A stretch of 64,000 nucleotides of DNA from Candidatus Magasanikbacteria bacterium RIFOXYC2_FULL_42_28 (GTDB taxonomy: Bacteria; Patescibacteriota; Patescibacteriia; Magasanikbacterales; GWA2-37-8): the NCBI GenBank assembly GCA_001784435.1, contig MFQZ01000003.1, positions 3,022 through 67,021 on the forward strand, given 5' to 3'. How positions within the stretch are numbered: the first letter of the stretch is position 1; each line of letters opens with the position of its first letter. Both the position numbers and the translations under genes were made by a program. This document shows, in pieces, positions 4,526 through 53,259 of the stretch. The notes beneath the pieces are model-generated. The model saw only the letters and a program-made list of their open reading frames with translations, was not told the DNA's origin and did not search any database.

Positions 4526-6478
4526 ATGAACTGGACAAAATTAATCGACCGAGTCAAAACCGCGCTCGCGCGTCGGGGAACAAAAACCGATTTTGACAAA
4601 AAATTGTTCCGCCGTCTGCGACCGCGCGCTATTCCCTCTTGGCCACAATTAAAATATTTAGGCCGATTTTTGCGACCGCTGGAAAAACGTCTGCTCTTTG
4701 GTCTCACCGCTCTCGCCGTCATCGTCACCATGGCCTGGCTGGGAATTTTTGTTATCCGCCACTCCGGTTCCGCGCCTAAAATCGGCGGGGAATACCGCGA
4801 GGCGCTCGTGGGACAACCAAAATATATCAACCCGATTTTTTCCTCCATCAGCGACATTGACTCCGATCTGGTTGCCTTAATTTATTCCGGTTTATTTAAA
4901 TACGACCACAACCAAAAATTAGTAACCGACTTGGCGGAAAAATATACCGCCGGCACGGATTTAAAAACTTACGAAATAACTTTGCGCGCCGGTACTAAAT
5001 GGTCGGACGGAATGCCCATCACAATTAACGACGTTATTTTTACTTTTGAGACAATCCAAAATTTAGAAGTGGGCAGTCCCCTCGCGACCGCTTTTGAAGG
5101 CGTAAAAATTGAAAAAACGGGAGAACGAAGCGTGCGTTTTACTTTAAAAGAACCTTACGTCTATTTCTTAAATAGTTTGACAGTCGGGCTTTTGCCAGAA
5201 CACGTCTGGGCGCAAATTGAACCAGCCGGTCTAAAACTTTCCAAATACAATTTACAACCGGTCGGCTCGGGACAATGGCGCTTTGAAAAAATGACCAAAA
5301 ACGAATCCGGTGAAGTCCAAAATTACACTCTGGTTCCAAGCGTGAATTACTATGGCACGAAACCGTATTTCACGAGTGTGGAATTAAAATTTTTCGTAAA
5401 TTTCCCCGACGCGCTGACGGCTCTAAAAGGCCAACTGGTAGACGGGGTGGCCTTTGTGCCTAATGAACTAAAGGATAAAATTGGCCAACGCAATTATACT
5501 GCTTACCAAATTTTACTACCCCAAATTACCGCTCTGTTTTTCAATCCGGATAAAAAAACCGAATTAAAAGATTCCGATGTGCGCGCGGCGCTCACTTGGG
5601 CCACGCCCCGAGAAAAAATTATCGCGGACGCGCTCGGTGGCAACGCGATTTTGGCCGACTCCCCCCTGCCGACGATATCAGTTGCCCATCGCGCCGGCGT
5701 AAAATATGGTTTTGACCCCAATGAAGCCAATAAAATTTTGGATAAAAAATACAAAAAAATAGAACCGGAAGAATATTTTCGCCTGCGCCATGAAATGGAA
5801 TTAAAAACTTACCAAACCGAAATTGACACCGTGCGCGCCACCAACACCTCCACTCCCGAAATAGTATCAACCACTTTGGAAAAAATAGAAAAAGAAATCG
5901 CGACCAAAGTACGCGCCGAAATGAGCGCCGAACAAACATTCTACCGCGCGAGTGATAATAAAATTCTCCAAATAACAATCGCGGTGGCGGAAAATCCCGA
6001 ATACCTGGCCACGGCCGAAATCATCGCCACGGCTTGGAGAAAAGTTGGTGTCCAAACATCCGTAAAAATTGTTACCACTTATCAAATCAATCGCGAAATA
6101 ATCCGTGACCGCAATTACGACGCTTTAATTTACGGCGAAATCACCGGCGCGGACTACGACCTGTTTCCGTTCTGGCATTCATCCCAAGCCAAATATCCGG
6201 GCTTAAACTTGGCGAACTACAACAATCGCGACGCTGATAAATTACTGGAAACCGCCCGTGCCACCGCGGACGAAACCGAACGAATAAAATTAATTAATAA
6301 ATTCCAAGAAATCGTGGACGTGGGCGCACCGGCCATATTTTTATACACCCCCGCGCACTGGCTCGTCGTTGCCAAAAATATTCAAGGTATAAAAATTAAC
6401 GCCCTGACCAAACCGTCAGATCGCTACGATTATCTGGGGCAGTGGTACACCAAAACAAAGTGGCAATGGAAACCATGA
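4526..6478 (+). CDS. ABC transporter substrate-binding protein, family 5 (oligopeptide/dipeptide/nickel type), with N-terminal membrane anchor
   Basis: 650 aa with an N-terminal TM segment followed by SBP_bac_5-like sequence (KYINPIFSSISDIDSDLVALIYSGLFKYD..., DLFPFWHSSQ, APAIFLYTP). The length and the pattern of conserved motifs fit the OppA/DppA family. Confidence 0.7.
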   Translation: MNWTKLIDRVKTALARRGTKTDFDKKLFRRLRPRAIPSWPQLKYLGRFLRPLEKRLLFGLTALAVIVTMAWLGIFVIRHSGSAPKIGGEYREALVGQPKYINPIFSSISDIDSDLVALIYSGLFKYDHNQKLVTDLAEKYTAGTDLKTYEITLRAGTKWSDGMPITINDVIFTFETIQNLEVGSPLATAFEGVKIEKTGERSVRFTLKEPYVYFLNSLTVGLLPEHVWAQIEPAGLKLSKYNLQPVGSGQWRFEKMTKNESGEVQNYTLVPSVNYYGTKPYFTSVELKFFVNFPDALTALKGQLVDGVAFVPNELKDKIGQRNYTAYQILLPQITALFFNPDKKTELKDSDVRAALTWATPREKIIADALGGNAILADSPLPTISVAHRAGVKYGFDPNEANKILDKKYKKIEPEEYFRLRHEMELKTYQTEIDTVRATNTSTPEIVSTTLEKIEKEIATKVRAEMSAEQTFYRASDNKILQITIAVAENPEYLATAEIIATAWRKVGVQTSVKIVTTYQINREIIRDRNYDALIYGEITGADYDLFPFWHSSQAKYPGLNLANYNNRDADKLLETARATADETERIKLINKFQEIVDVGAPAIFLYTPAHWLVVAKNIQGIKINALTKPSDRYDYLGQWYTKTKWQWKP

Positions 6479-48937: not shown

Positions 48938-50008
48938 CTAACGCCACAACCAACACTCGCTCGCTACCTTTTGCTTTAACTTTCGCGAATTGCCATGACT
49001 GATAAGCCCTAAATACGATTGGACAACAGTATCTTTCGTAGTTAGGCGAATTTTTCGCAACATTCTCTGTTTTGTTTTAGTTCGAATAACACGATGGTCA
49101 AAGAAATTCACCCAACCAAGAAAATCAACACCGGAAGACACGGTTTTTATAAAAACTTTATCCGGATGCAAGGTAAGTTTTAAATTTGATTGTAAAAATT
49201 CTTGTATTTTTGGCATTGCCGCCTCCAACCGAAATTTATCACGCGAAAGAAAAATAAAATCATCGGCATACCGCGCGTAATAATGAGATTTTAGCCGGTG
49301 CTTTACCCATTGATCAAATTTATTTAAATAAATATTGGCGAATAACTGTGAGGTAAGATTGCCGAGAGGTAAGCCGACGCCAGATAATGATTCTGTGTGG
49401 AAACTGTTAATAATATTCTGCAACAGTCGAAGTATATTTTGATCAGGAATATAGCTACGCAATATTGTCAGTAATATTTCGTGATTAATACTCGCAAAAA
49501 ATTTCCTAATATCACATTTCAACACCCAACAAGTACGGTTATGATTTTTACTCACTCGAAACACCAAATTTCTAAAACTATTTACCGCCTTATGCGTCCC
49601 TTTATTATCACGGCAGGAAAAAGATCCGGCAATAAAAGTTTTATCAAAAAATGGATATAAAATCCGATAAACAGCGTGGTGGAGTAGCCGATCGCGCACG
49701 CTTGCCTTATGAATATGCCGTCGTTTGGGATCGTTAATAAAAAAACTTTTATAACCGCCGTGTTGATAAACGCGATTGACTAAATCTTCGTGAAGTTCTA
49801 CAATATTATCCATTAAGCGACTCTCAAACTCCACAACATCAATTTTCTTTTTCTTGTCAATTATAAATTCCTCCCACGCTAAACATAAATTTTCGTGGGA
49901 AATAATATTTTCATAACTATGACTCAATTGAATTTTCCCGCCGACACGGCAATTAAGCCCCCCCCCCCAGCAAAGCCGTACTGAAATTCCCATTTTGACT
50001 GAACTCAA
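48938..50008 (-). CDS. diversity-generating retroelement (DGR) reverse transcriptase
   Basis: RT motifs including YARYADDFIF (YxDD box) and the DGR-specific motif-4 sequence GVGLPLGNLTSQLFANIYLN (I/LGxxxSQ). 356 aa (or 351 from the ATG at 49993; the ORF track uses a TTG start). Adjacent TR/VR pair and Avd gene. Confidence 0.85.
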   Translation of the reverse strand: MSSVKMGISVRLCWGGGLNCRVGGKIQLSHSYENIISHENLCLAWEEFIIDKKKKIDVVEFESRLMDNIVELHEDLVNRVYQHGGYKSFFINDPKRRHIHKASVRDRLLHHAVYRILYPFFDKTFIAGSFSCRDNKGTHKAVNSFRNLVFRVSKNHNRTCWVLKCDIRKFFASINHEILLTILRSYIPDQNILRLLQNIINSFHTESLSGVGLPLGNLTSQLFANIYLNKFDQWVKHRLKSHYYARYADDFIFLSRDKFRLEAAMPKIQEFLQSNLKLTLHPDKVFIKTVSSGVDFLGWVNFFDHRVIRTKTKQRMLRKIRLTTKDTVVQSYLGLISHGNSRKLKQKVASECWLWR

Positions 50009-50330
50009 GATTTGTTATTTGTTGTGGCATAGTTTTTTAATTGATCTCCCGCGTTTGACGCGCTACACGCTCGGCGTAAAAATAGATAATTTATTTACCG
50101 AACTACTGGGGATAACGATTGCCGCGCAATATACCAAACGAACTGATAAATTAGAATTTTTAGAAGAATTGAATAGAAAATTTGATAACTTAAAATATTT
50201 TATCACTATTCTCTGGGAAGCAAAAGGGTTAAGTGCCGGAAAATATGCGCAACTATCTCAAAAACTCACACGCATCGGCCAAATGCTCGGCGGTTGGATT
50301 GCGCTTTTAAAAAGAAACTCTCCCAACTAA
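49995..50330 (+). CDS. Avd-like DGR accessory variability determinant (four-helix-bundle family), encoded on the strand opposite to the RT and TR
   Basis: 111 aa. The C-terminus LTRIGQMLGGWIALLKRN resembles the Bordetella Avd C-terminus (...GRILGSWIARVNRKG). The size and helical character fit the 23S-rRNA-IVS/Avd family. The start overlaps the RT start divergently. Confidence 0.6.
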   Translation: MTELKICYLLWHSFLIDLPRLTRYTLGVKIDNLFTELLGITIAAQYTKRTDKLEFLEELNRKFDNLKYFITILWEAKGLSAGKYAQLSQKLTRIGQMLGGWIALLKRNSPN

Positions 50331-50353
50331 ATTGGGAGAGAACGAGGATATTA

Positions 50354-50471
50354 GCTGAGGAAGCCGAACAGGTAGTTCCGATTCCAGTTGCCCTTGACCG
50401 TGTTGAGGTTCAGGTTGCGCCAGTCGGAATTGCCGTTGAGGTAGAGCACGTTGCCGTCCCGCGCGGAGCCG
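50354..50471 (-). repeat. DGR template repeat (TR), 118 bp, sense strand = minus
   Basis: 118/118 alignable with 50827-50944. All 14 mismatches are at positions where this copy has A on the minus strand. The minus-strand reading is ...GNVLYLNGNSDWRNLNLNTVKGNWNRNYLFGFLS, built on AAC/AAT codons. Confidence 0.8.
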
Positions 50472-50820
50472 CCTACAAATATACAAAATAACTTCTGTAA
50501 CACCGCCCCTTGAATACTCTTGGGGTTGAATCGAATTTGGAAACTTTATTTCCCTACTATTTTGTACCGAGTATCTTCATTTTTAGGGTATACCGGTAGC
50601 ACACTAACTGGCAACATATCGCCAATTATTCCGGCCGATCGGTGTATCCAGAGTTCAACCGCCCAAAGCCGTAGCCGTGGACTGTTTCGTTTACTATCCG
50701 GATATAGTATACCACAAAAAGGAAGAGCGCGCACCGAGAACCGATGCGCGCGCGAGGTGAAACGAAGGGACCGAGCGACCAAGGAACAAACAAAGTTCCA
50801 AGGCACCCAGGATCCCAGCG

Positions 50821-51399
50821 CTACTCGCTGAGGAAGCCGAACAGGAAGCGCCGACGCCAGCGGCCCTTGACCGTGTCGAGGTACAGGCCGCGCCAGTCGG
50901 AATCGCCGTAGAGGTAGAGCACGCTGCCGTCCCGCGCGGAGCCGAGCTCCACGATCGGTGCGTTCCTCTGCTCATCGGGGTGTTGCACCCCGATGGCCAA
51001 GAGGTGCTTGGGCAGGATGGGCGGCTTGGCGTTCTCCTTCCCCCAAGCCAGCATCTCCTCGCGGAACGGATCCCTGTCAAACTGCACCAAGATCACGCTC
51101 GCCGGCTTGGCGAGGCCAACTTCATCATTCGCAAACTGCCGAACGATGTTGTCGTCGGTGCCGTCGTACTTGCCGATCTTGATTGCCTCGGCAACCGACG
51201 ACACCTTGTACGGCTGGAGGACGAGCGTCCTCACAACCGTACCGATGAGCGGCGACGGCGGGGTGAGAGCCGGCCGTGTGACATCTTCCACGACGAGCTT
51301 GCGCTCACCGCGAAAAATGGCGCGGGCTACATCTGCGCCTCCCAACATGTTGAGGAGCGCTTCAGTTTCGCCCCTCCTCCAATCATCATACTTTCCCAT
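50821..51399 (-). CDS. DGR target protein (192 aa, unknown fold) with C-terminal variable region
   Basis: The minus-strand ORF contains the VR in frame. The ATG at 51399 is preceded by a strong SD ggaaggagctcgtcATG; the ORF track's longer 50821..51558 version lacks such a signal. The region is GC-rich (about 60% or more) relative to the rest of the window. Confidence 0.6.
   Translation of the reverse strand: MGKYDDWRRGETEALLNMLGGADVARAIFRGERKLVVEDVTRPALTPPSPLIGTVVRTLVLQPYKVSSVAEAIKIGKYDGTDDNIVRQFANDEVGLAKPASVILVQFDRDPFREEMLAWGKENAKPPILPKHLLAIGVQHPDEQRNAPIVELGSARDGSVLYLYGDSDWRGLYLDTVKGRWRRRFLFGFLSE
50827..50944 (-). repeat. DGR variable repeat (VR) at the 3' end of the target gene
   Basis: Same 118 bp as the TR, but with N at 14 TR-adenine positions. 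It encodes the C-terminal ...GSVLYLYGDSDWRGLYLDTVKGRWRRRFLFGFLSE of the target protein and ends 3 codons before the stop. Confidence 0.8.
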
Positions 51400-51637
51400 G
51401 ACGAGCTCCTTCCGAGTTGAAAACCCGAAAAGTGTTTTGCCTCTGCCCGAGGCCCAGGTCTCTCTCTGCATGAGAAGAGCTTTTGTGCCACTTACAAATA
51501 AATATAGGTAAACCATATTTACTCCTTGGTTCGAAAATGGAACGAAAGCACGGCTCATGATTGTTTAATTTTAACACTAAATCATACCTTAAAATAATGA
51601 TTTTGTCAATGTTTGTGTACCACGACCTCTTCATCAC

Positions 51638-51666
51638 TTGACATATTTTGATATTTAGTGTAAAAT
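51638..51666 (+). promoter_or_regulatory. sigma70-type promoter for the AbiEi/AbiEii operon
   Basis: TTGACA (51638-51643), 17-nt spacer, TAAAAT (51661-51666). Confidence 0.4.
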
Positions 51667-51704
51667 ATATACATAAAGTCATTAAATCTTATGACCTACG
51701 CTAT

Positions 51705-52490
51705 ATGAAACAAACTATACTTTCTGCTAAACAAAGCGAACTGCTCGAAAATCTGATTGGTGAATATGGCTTGATTGTCACTTCTGGTCAGATTATTAAG
51801 ATTGCTAAAAATAACTGGGATTACAAACAAGCCAAAAATCTAATAACAAAACTTGTCAAAGACGGCTGGCTCATCCGTATCAAACGAGGTCTGTATACTA
51901 TTTCCGAATTAACCGGCCGAGGATTTTTGTCGCTCTCATCCTATACGGTGGCCAATCTCTTGGTCAAGGATTCATACGTTTCTTTTGCATCCGCATTGCA
52001 ATATCATAATATGTTTGATCAGCTCATGAAAAAAACTACCTCTGTCAGTTTAAAAATGTACAAAACTACCACACTTAATAACATGGAATATGATTTTGTA
52101 AAAACCAAAAAACAATTATTTTTTGGTTTTGAAGAGATCGTGTTTTATAATAAAACAGTACGAATTGCCACAGCGGAAAAAGCGCTAATTGATATGGTCC
52201 ATTTTCACAAAAGTAAATTGATGATTGATGTGGTGATTGAAAAAATTATTAATCACAAACACGATCTGGATTTTAATCGTTTTAACGAATACCTATCTAA
52301 ATTTTCCGGCACTACCATTAAAATATTTGGCCTTATTTTTGATTTTCTAAATATTGATTCCAGTAAATTATACAAAATTGTGAAACATAAGCGCGGCACT
52401 AACTGGATGTTAGTCGGCGACAAAAAATTCGATGCCAAATGGAGAATATACTATGACGAATTCTTTGATCAATATAATGAAAAAACTTAA
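51705..52490 (+). CDS. type IV toxin-antitoxin system antitoxin AbiEi (wHTH transcriptional regulator)
   Basis: N-terminal AbiEi_4-like wHTH (LSAKQSELLENLIGEYGLIVTSGQIIKIAKNNWDYKQAKNLITKLVKDGWLIRIKRGLYTIS). It immediately precedes an AbiEii gene. The ORF track's 51648 start is a TTG inside the promoter; the ATG at 51705 is preferred. Confidence 0.7.
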   Translation: MKQTILSAKQSELLENLIGEYGLIVTSGQIIKIAKNNWDYKQAKNLITKLVKDGWLIRIKRGLYTISELTGRGFLSLSSYTVANLLVKDSYVSFASALQYHNMFDQLMKKTTSVSLKMYKTTTLNNMEYDFVKTKKQLFFGFEEIVFYNKTVRIATAEKALIDMVHFHKSKLMIDVVIEKIINHKHDLDFNRFNEYLSKFSGTTIKIFGLIFDFLNIDSSKLYKIVKHKRGTNWMLVGDKKFDAKWRIYYDEFFDQYNEKT

Positions 52491-52500
52491 TTTTTAAAAT

Positions 52501-53259
52501 ATGATTACTCGCCAACAATTAGAAATTATTAACCGAAAAACTTTGAAATATCCTTTGCATATTGCGGAAAAAGATTATTTTCTCACATTGGTTCTCCAAA
52601 TTATTACCCAATCCACCCTCCAAGATACTCTTATTTTCAAAGGTGGTACCGCTCTACACCATACCTACTTGGAACAACATCGTTTTTCCGAGGACTTGGA
52701 TTTTTCCGCCAACCAAAAACCGGTAGAATTGGAAGAATTGCGAAATATTTTTAGTGGTATTGACTATTTGAATATTAAAAAAGATTATCTCTCTGGCGCG
52801 ACTGTAAAAATTGAAAAATTGCAATACACCGGCCCTTTAATTCAGCCCAATTCTTTGAAAGTGGAAATAGATTTTTTGCAAAATGTTTTGCTTCCTCCTC
52901 AAACCCTAAAATACAACAACGTCTGGAATATAGATTTTGAGGTAAAGGTAATGAACATCAAGGAAATCTGCGCTGAAAAAATTCGCGCCACGAACGATCG
53001 CGCTCGTTATCGCGATTTTTATGATTTATTTCTTATTTTAGAAAAATATCAACTTGATTTAAACGAAATCGCCAGATATATAAAACAAAAAGAAATTAGA
53101 AAGCCGTTGACAAAAAACAACATAAAAAATAACTGGGCAATGATTGGTGCACAAAAAGAAATTGAAATGAGCCAAATATATTATTCTCGAATGATTGAGG
53201 ATGGGGAGATAATGGCCATGATTGAAACTCTGCCATTTACCAAGATTACAAAAATATAA
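52501..53259 (+). CDS. type IV toxin-antitoxin system toxin AbiEii (DUF1814 nucleotidyltransferase)
   Basis: Hallmark FKGGTALHHTYLEQHRFSEDLDF (GG...S.D.D NTase motif) and C-terminal ICAEKIRATNDRARYRDFYDLFLI. Confidence 0.8.
   Translation: MITRQQLEIINRKTLKYPLHIAEKDYFLTLVLQIITQSTLQDTLIFKGGTALHHTYLEQHRFSEDLDFSANQKPVELEELRNIFSGIDYLNIKKDYLSGATVKIEKLQYTGPLIQPNSLKVEIDFLQNVLLPPQTLKYNNVWNIDFEVKVMNIKEICAEKIRATNDRARYRDFYDLFLILEKYQLDLNEIARYIKQKEIRKPLTKNNIKNNWAMIGAQKEIEMSQIYYSRMIEDGEIMAMIETLPFTKITKI

Follow-up and report, generated by a model that had tools for sequence, protein, structure and literature searches.

A small DGR variable protein of a CPR bacterium likely represents a large unannotated sequence family with a compact C-type-lectin-like domain

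DGRs are very common in bacteria of the candidate phyla radiation (CPR), the group from which the DNA analyzed here originates, and neither a fold nor a function could so far be assigned to most of their targets. Two described variable proteins, Mtd (Bordetella phage BPP-1) and TvpA (Treponema denticola), share several features with the target of the present locus. In all of them a C-terminal VR of ~40 residues is located on the last β-strands, AAY-coded variable residues stand among aromatic and Gly residues that are fixed, the last strand, hydrophobic and invariant, is encoded beside the IMH, and RT, Avd and TR are required for diversification. Mtd and TvpA are of the FGE type, whereas our target has no detectable sequence or profile similarity to them and is far smaller, with a 145-aa domain free of FGE-type inserts. 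Furthermore, a signal peptide is missing, the protein is not a phage tail fibre, its avd is found on the opposite strand and the structured RNA lies 5' instead of 3' of the TR.

AvpA and AvpA-like proteins of Nanoarchaeota and Woesearchaeota are likewise small, single-domain proteins of nanosized, host-dependent organisms, with a fold unpredictable from sequence and a hydrophobic β5 motif at the C-terminus (PMC5006420). However, the AvpA motifs GXXVVVYAH, HPXXXPFXG and RFXGV are absent from our target and its family consensus, the C-terminal hydrophobic strand being loosely analogous. The VR described here covers ~40 residues from β3, that of AvpA 27 residues after β4' (PMC5006420). In contrast to AvpA there are no large inserts, and an extra N-terminal helical module is present.

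Most VRs of a CPR set were left as "unknown VR" classes UVR1-6 or ungrouped, with an undecidable fold (Wu et al. 2018, PMC5758913). Our target resembles these in its CPR origin, its B3 TR-(avd)-RT arrangement and its lack of recognisable domains. While the fold was left open there, a confident model points to a lectin-like one here.

The window, i.e. the whole 64-kb stretch of DNA that was analyzed, is 100% identical to Candidatus Magasanikbacteria bacterium RIFOXYC2_FULL_42 and carries the target gene at 50821..51399 on the minus strand (protein record OGH88357.1, A3J93_04875). Its translation comprises 192 codons plus stop and ends with APIVELGSARDGSVLYLYGDSDWRGLYLDTVKGRWRRRFLFGFLSE. Length, position and C-terminal end thus agree with the first-pass annotation, which had been made from the letters alone. 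A Shine-Dalgarno sequence, GGAAGGAG, is located 6 nt 5' of the ATG at 51399. Upstream of it, a promoter (TTGACA-17-TATGAT, 51609..51581) and a conserved 5'UTR occupy 51400..51609 (minus strand). The 180 nt 5' of the ATG, aligned across seven loci, consist of this promoter and the non-coding 5'UTR. Together with the Shine-Dalgarno sequence, the common start of the homologues and a sharp fall in GC content at the start codon, this identifies the start of the 192-aa form as correct, and the 245 aa given for A3J93_04875 in the database are over-extended.

On the minus strand the cassette is arranged as promoter/5'UTR, target, a conserved segment of 70 nt, terminator, -10 box, leader, TR and a second terminator. 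Its 3' part consists of avd on the plus strand (49995..50330) followed by the RT gene on the minus strand (48938..50008). The 356-aa RT contains LGNLTSQ and matched RVT_1 (5.2e-27) and a PHROG reverse transcriptase (3.5e-107). The avd gene, on the strand opposite to the target, encodes 111 aa and was recognised by Pfam bAvd (8.9e-13); with NCBIfam DivGenRetAVD it reached 1.5e-17 and 63.8 bits, which is under the curated cut-off of 80 of this model. The order TR-(avd)-RT corresponds to architecture B3, to which Wu et al. (2018, PMC5758913) attribute 90% of the DGRs in CPR. Since B3 is the standard architecture of CPR DGRs, the reversed avd is ordinary here, and we rejected it as an unusual trait. 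A type IV AbiEi/AbiEii pair adjoins the cassette.

The VR forms the last 40 residues of the target. Its core of 118 nt (50827..50944, minus strand; residues 153-191) is 87% identical to the TR core of the same length (50354..50471, minus strand), which contains 26 adenines and nine AAY codons. All 14 mismatches fall on TR adenines, and the 92 positions with another base in the TR are all unchanged (chance ~2e-11, hypergeometric, from these counts). Ten codons differ between TR and VR, namely N159S, N164Y, N166D, N171G, N173Y, N175D, N180R, N182R, N184R and Y185F; in the TR nine of them are AAY and one is TAC. Fixed G, L, W and R residues are interleaved with these codons, much as the first-pass annotation had described for conserved aromatic and Gly residues. 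By our own arithmetic (15^9 x 4) at least 1.5e11 protein variants are possible.

The repeat ends with ...CTCAGC, followed by GAGTAG on the VR side and TAATAT on the TR side. The segment after VR and stop (50752..50820, minus strand) carries a short hairpin and is kept across the aligned loci; here the two sides diverge (CAGCGAGTAG vs CAGCTAAT). By analogy to the Bordetella phage model this segment is presumed to be a target-recognition element near the IMH. It is followed by the intrinsic terminator of the target gene (50727..50751, minus strand), an 11-bp GC stem with a T-run, whose stem covaries between loci.

By every feature that could be tested the 192-aa protein is a DGR variable protein. 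According to the Bordetella phage model, TR RNA would be copied by an RT-Avd complex that misincorporates opposite adenines, and the cDNA would then replace the VR and recode the ten codons.

A word-indexed search yielded 17 homologous proteins of 181-204 aa with 45-65% identity to the target and the same start, M-[AG]-K-Y. In their alignment the variable columns coincide, the comparison that the first-pass annotation had proposed, and G153, S154, G158, L161, L163, R170, L172, W181, G188 and F189 are invariant or almost invariant. Four homologues could be placed on contigs, and the same cassette was present wherever the flank was long enough. The TRs of these cassettes carry AAY at the same codons, and mismatches are again nearly all at adenines.

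An exhaustive profile search extended the family to ~1,200 clusters at 50% identity (E <= 1e-3), with 121 of them at E <= 1e-10. Among the 150 best profile matches a length of 140-220 aa prevailed. In a few members the ~135-aa core is found two or three times in tandem. One match of 3,460 aa (P0078) was discarded as a repeat adhesin and low-complexity artefact. In the wider superfamily ...RFxAVRK is a typical C-terminus, and several proteins possess a signal peptide, a lipobox or a TM anchor, which fits an extracellular binding domain.

No Pfam match was obtained for the target (E up to 1) or for 69 superfamily members (E up to 0.01), and the family HMMs of FGE-sulfatase (PF03781), DUF1566 (PF07603) and Lectin_C (PF00059) matched neither the target nor 69 relatives. 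For the target, NCBIfam and PHROG gave no match, and neither did PDB sequences by phmmer or profile, so that the absence of a C-type-lectin or Ig signature noted in the first pass was confirmed in these libraries. Furthermore, no relatives were found on IMG/VR viral contigs or, with the single protein as query, in JGI metagenomes. Distant superfamily members were located on short contigs that show no gene neighbourhood. The target likely belongs to a new, large and unannotated sequence family on the usual scaffold and not to a new kind of scaffold. New here means without a relative in Pfam, NCBIfam, PHROG or PDB sequences, and the family was set beside the classes UVR1-6 by their description only.

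As a whole, we take the DGR to be intact and the target to be its variable protein, with a compact lectin-like head, an N-terminal module and a role as ligand binder, and assign this explanation a probability of about 70%. A diversified ligand binder is the most likely function suggested by these features.

The N-terminal module comprises residues 1-40 (MGKYDDWRRGETEALLNMLGGADVARAIFRGERKLVVEDV; 51280..51399, minus strand) and is predicted to form helix-GG-helix, followed by a Pro-rich linker. In the full-length model its helices span 9-20 and 22-29 with a pLDDT of 56-78. Residues 1-40 are the best-conserved part of the close family, with the consensus MxKYxxWTxGExEALLNxxGGxDVARAVLRGERKL. The same module was found on four proteins with different C-terminal parts and VR-like ends (P0070, P0074, P0113 and P0141), and a looser version, MKYGxLTLGQIEAIVNKLGGMEGVxxFLxGE, heads many distant members of the core family.

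Additionally, the module occurs as stand-alone ORFs of about 30-72 aa. A search of a large database with the module profile returned only ORFs of 30-72 aa, and in two loci such tiny ORFs lie 5' of genes without a match to the core family. A Pfam scan of the module gave no match. Neither the 64-kb window nor the 10 fetched loci contained a second module-bearing gene. The module is probably an oligomeriser or a docking unit; it would oligomerise the protein or dock the variable head on a conserved partner.

The highest 19-residue Kyte-Doolittle mean of the target is 1.05, and the protein has no cysteines. In agreement with the first-pass annotation it has no Sec signal peptide or TM segment, and none was found in the close family. 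Among 26 unique targets of cassettes sharing the leader RNA (see below), a 17-residue window with a mean hydropathy of at least 1.9 was present in a single one. Most clusters of cellular DGR targets have an N-terminal TM segment or signal peptide (Roux et al. 2021), and this DGR clade is therefore atypical. Without such signals an extracellular binding role is not evident. Proteins that lack any export signal but carry a conserved adaptor at the N-terminus raise the question of their site of action and of their partner.

The protein might stay in the cytoplasm and serve a conflict (defence) system as diversified sensor or adaptor, coupled to an effector by its N-terminal module, and be no surface adhesin. 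We regard this as possible but on balance unlikely. Besides the missing signals here and in 25 of the 26 unique related targets, it would account for a module that is conserved above the binding domain and common to unrelated VR domains. The genomic surroundings point the same way, with AbiEi/AbiEii neighbours here, recombinases or transposases at homologous target loci, and HicAB, ParE and NYN genes beside one stand-alone module ORF (locus L010). For cytoplasmic DGR-diversified sensors a precedent exists (PMC10907252). However, the window and the 10 loci hold no module-bearing partner, and neither an NTPase nor an effector domain is present. Signal peptides or lipoboxes do occur in superfamily members at a greater distance, and non-classical export is possible in CPR organisms.

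The spacer between VR and TR shows a nucleotide conservation far above that of the target protein. It contains a structured leader RNA of ~225 nt directly 5' of the TR (50478..50703, minus strand). With ten sequences RNAalifold gave 51 pairs, and 98.6% of the cells were paired. Compensatory double changes were seen in 17 pairs compared to 6.2 +/- 1.7 in shuffles (0/500 reached this value), and in at most 5 pairs when the partners were slid as a control. Lineage-specific insertions are located at the hairpin tips. Rfam contained no match for the leader.

On one side of the leader stands an extended -10 box, on the other, immediately behind the TR, a terminator. The box, TGgTATACT (50706..50714, minus strand), is nearly invariant, with 6 base substitutions in all in 16 distinct aligned sequences, and is, judging from its sequence, the presumed promoter of the TR RNA. 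The terminator, a hairpin with T-run (50318..50340, minus strand), is kept in other loci and here includes the avd stop codon in its loop. The conserved blocks of the leader retrieved 11 genome loci and 55 metagenome loci.

Against our reading of the target stands that no VR variants, as signs of ongoing diversification, were seen among the cluster members, which share the same sequence and differ in their gene calls only; one read-derived member has a change at residue 184, but also a frameshift. For one homologue, 11 contigs that stem from several samples carry an identical sequence. Moreover, some related loci are degenerate, as in L021, where the leader is fused to the middle of the RT. 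These observations would suit a frozen relic that was diversified formerly and is inactive now. Nevertheless, we consider such a relic doubtful, as our locus has an intact RT, Avd, TR and leader RNA as well as intact terminators and an intact promoter, and nine AAY codons are retained in the TR.

For the fold of the protein, AlphaFold2 with the 17-sequence alignment gave a full-length model with a pLDDT of 84.7, in which the N-terminal 50 residues were weak. For the core α/β domain (residues 48-192; 50824..51258, minus strand) 114 sequences resulted in a pLDDT of 97.8 and a pTM of 0.92. In core numbering the model consists of E6-14, H22-29, H38-41, E53-60, H66-75, H83-92, E102-103, E112-119, E122-129 and E139-144, i.e. 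β-α-α-β-α-α-β-β-β-β. [quoted passage not shown] An Ig fold is excluded, since the model is mixed α/β with four to five helices; Foldseek returned no Ig matches.

In the PDB all Foldseek matches longer than 95 columns (up to ~125) with an rmsd below 6 Å (~4-6 Å) were C-type-lectin-like domains. They comprised the Bd2740 CTD, NKR-P1, NKp80, NKp65, LOX-1, mincle, DCIR2, CLEC5A, DNGR-1 and the aggrecan G1 domain. None of the matches was significant, with E-values of 0.18-0.22 at best, and TM scores ranged from 0.36 to 0.58, mostly 0.36-0.47. In BFVD, herpesvirus C-type lectins and UL45 came out on top, with a DUF1566 protein at rank 21. Mtd, TvpA, AvpA and TaqVP were absent from the Foldseek top 50, and hhalign of the 114-sequence profile against Mtd gave a probability of 0.2%.

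The best neighbours, with TM up to 0.58, were the tip of Bd2740 (PDB 8OKS), NKR-P1, NKp80, LOX-1 and CLEC5A. For the Bd2740 CTD the Foldseek target TM score was 0.53-0.58 and the match probability 0.75-0.92; its authors describe it as a variant C-type-lectin fold with Mtd as the only analogue of its trimerisation. The Bd2740 tip and the NK-receptor domains are all calcium-free, ligand-binding and lectin-like. The core domain shares only 4-12% identity with them and, in contrast to them, has no disulfides and no long-loop region, and carries an extra N-terminal β-α-α.

Within the model the VR (residues 153-191) is placed on the last three strands with a hydrophobic β5-like motif at the end. Variable residues alternate in an i/i+2 manner (171/173/175 and 180/182/184). 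W181 is invariant and W169 nearly so, both between variable positions, and the terminal strand LFGFL is invariant. Given this alternation, the variable residues would line one face of the sheet around the fixed W169 and W181, and the LFGFL strand would close the fold.

The first-pass annotation had offered two options, a compact lectin-fold variant or an uncharacterised VR scaffold. The former is favoured by the pLDDT of 97.8 and the lectin-like neighbours, but with E-values of at least 0.18 and 0.2% for Mtd the lectin assignment is not statistically secure. The latter holds only for the sequence family, which has no Pfam, NCBIfam or PDB relative. [quoted passage not shown]

We also considered that the core might be a distinct α/β scaffold of only superficial likeness to lectins, which would then make a third kind of DGR scaffold in addition to the lectin fold and to the Ig fold, the latter being disputed. 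The E-values, TM scores mostly below 0.5, an extra N-terminal β-α-α subdomain of ~50 residues in the core model and the lack of a sequence or profile link to any lectin family or Mtd would be in line with this idea, as would the CPR VRs that Wu et al. (PMC5758913) could not assign to a fold. It appears improbable to us, however, because C-type-lectin-like domains over 95-125 columns dominate the neighbours in two independent libraries and the VR is C-terminal, on the last strands and with a hydrophobic end strand, as in Mtd, TvpA and AvpA. Moreover, known DGR lectin-fold proteins are equally remote from each other (PMC5006420), and VR regions are systematically lectin-like according to Roux et al. 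(2021).

As a minimal, disulfide-free, probably lectin-like domain of ~145 residues, the family of ~1,200 clusters would extend the lectin-fold rule of DGRs. Such an addition to a known principle is incremental, yet useful. The domain, which is probably soluble, also offers structural work or binder engineering a scaffold of unusually small size.

The first-pass annotation had named one case as refuting its proposal, namely an origin of the ORF from a larger lectin-fold target by truncation or pseudogenisation. Such an origin might be suspected from the longer database annotation of 245 aa and the abrupt GC change at the start codon, but is excluded by the conservation of length (181-204 aa in 17 homologues with a common start, 140-220 aa in most of the 150 best profile matches), promoter, 5'UTR and Shine-Dalgarno sequence in independent genomes and by a complete and very confident core-domain model.

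The GC content falls sharply at the start codon of the target. The target ORF has 62.5% GC and a GC3 of 0.81, compared to a mean GC3 of 0.42 (sd 0.07, maximum 0.53) in the approximately 40 further ORFs of the window that reach 150 aa. RT and avd have 37% GC. Every homologue showed a GC3 of 0.87-0.93 compared to 43-50% GC in the flanks. In other target families of leader-RNA cassettes GC3 was 0.56-0.95 versus 34-52% (63% in one short GC-rich contig), low-GC3 exceptions, down to 0.56, being few. Together, the leader RNA and the GC-rich targets provide handles on the workings of the CPR-type TR-(avd)-RT system.

A more far-reaching and quite improbable proposal is that the small leaderless targets of this clade are diversified cytoplasmic receptors, each with a variable lectin-like head on a conserved helix-GG-helix adaptor and with a common partner, and that the GC3 is a footprint of the same process. 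If true, CPR would own an intracellular antibody-like recognition system instead of variable adhesins, and the extreme GC3 would arise via shielding from adenine mutagenesis or via conversion bias. At third positions outside the VR both A and T are depleted, which argues against a simple adenine effect behind the GC3 bias.

A conserved structured RNA of approximately 225 nt, here referred to as the leader RNA, is located immediately 5' of the template repeat (TR) on the minus strand (window positions 50478-50703). Its fold comprises 51 pairs, 17 of which showed compensatory changes, and the tips of the hairpins were variable. The leader RNA was common to cassettes with many different targets and was found at 11 genome and 55 metagenome loci. 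A search of Rfam with it gave no match. With a -10 box at 50706-50714 and a terminator directly after the TR at 50318-50340 (both minus strand), the leader RNA and the TR appear to form a single short transcript which stops at this terminator. This arrangement differs from that of Bordetella phage BPP-1, whose functional spacer RNA is found 3' of the TR.

The stop codon of the accessory gene avd (plus strand) is placed, within 50328-50340, inside the loop of the minus-strand terminator hairpin that comes after the TR. Additionally, the start codons of avd and of the reverse transcriptase (RT) gene overlap divergently at 49995-50008, and therefore the promoter of each gene must sit within the coding sequence of the other.

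In the related loci L023 to L077 the leader RNA is preceded by small targets (approximately 160-250 aa), with a single ORF of 633 aa; examples are found in L023 (12576-13190), L027 (80-826), L046 (2597-3211) and L072 (1679-2200). The endings of their variable regions (VR) were highly varied, namely ...QVLARKSA, ...RFLALSK, ...QWVFCLPCK, ...RWVFVRKS, ...GFLVPRE and ...WFFGLSE. The HMM of the core domain matched 13 of 38 targets of leader RNA cassettes, and a hydrophobic segment was absent in 25 of 26 unique targets.

The target ORF in the window (50821-51399, minus strand) had a GC3 of 0.81, and the GC richness spans the whole ORF with the jump falling at the start codon. Outside the VR, A and T were both depleted at third positions. 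In the related cassettes, which carry several different target families, the target GC3 ranged from 0.56 to 0.95; the surrounding genomes mostly have 34-52% GC, and the RT and avd genes are AT-rich. Such GC-rich target ORFs were present in L001 (6001-6582), L004 (2294-2908), L005 (230-808), L006 (6001-6582), L013 (506-1249), L015 (1821-2450), L018 (5351-5908) and many of L023 to L077. The GC richness may stem from transfer out of GC-rich donors or from conversion bias; a structural requirement and protection against mutagenesis are further candidate causes.

The target gene promoter and a 5'UTR of approximately 175 nt (51400-51609, minus strand) were conserved over seven loci. The 5'UTR is probably structured; its sole match in Rfam was to a microRNA and due to chance (E = 0.087), far under the gathering score. 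A 245-aa ORF of the public annotation results from translation of part of this 5'UTR.

The N-terminal module of the target, 40 residues of helix-GG-helix (51280-51399, minus strand), also heads proteins with unrelated VR-like C-terminal domains, and the related proteins P0070, P0074, P0113, P0141 and P0164-P0184 are tied to it. It was found as tiny stand-alone ORFs as well (L008, 4001-4129; L010, 4001-4120). The module had no match in Pfam; a faint likeness to helix-hairpin-helix is possible.

Directly adjoining the DGR is a pair of AbiEi antitoxin and AbiEii nucleotidyltransferase toxin genes (51648-53259, plus strand; 32-34% GC). At homologous target loci the cassettes were flanked by recombinases and transposases. 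These neighbours suggest that the cassettes are located in mobile or defence islands. HicAB, ParE and NYN genes adjoin the stand-alone module ORF of L010, not a cassette.

Degenerate copies were present in L021 (about 5039-5400), L017 and L019. L021 carries the first half of the leader RNA joined straight onto the middle of an RT gene. L017 and L019 retain nothing of the leader RNA but its 5' part; both come from a bin labelled Gammaproteobacteria and were probably mis-binned.
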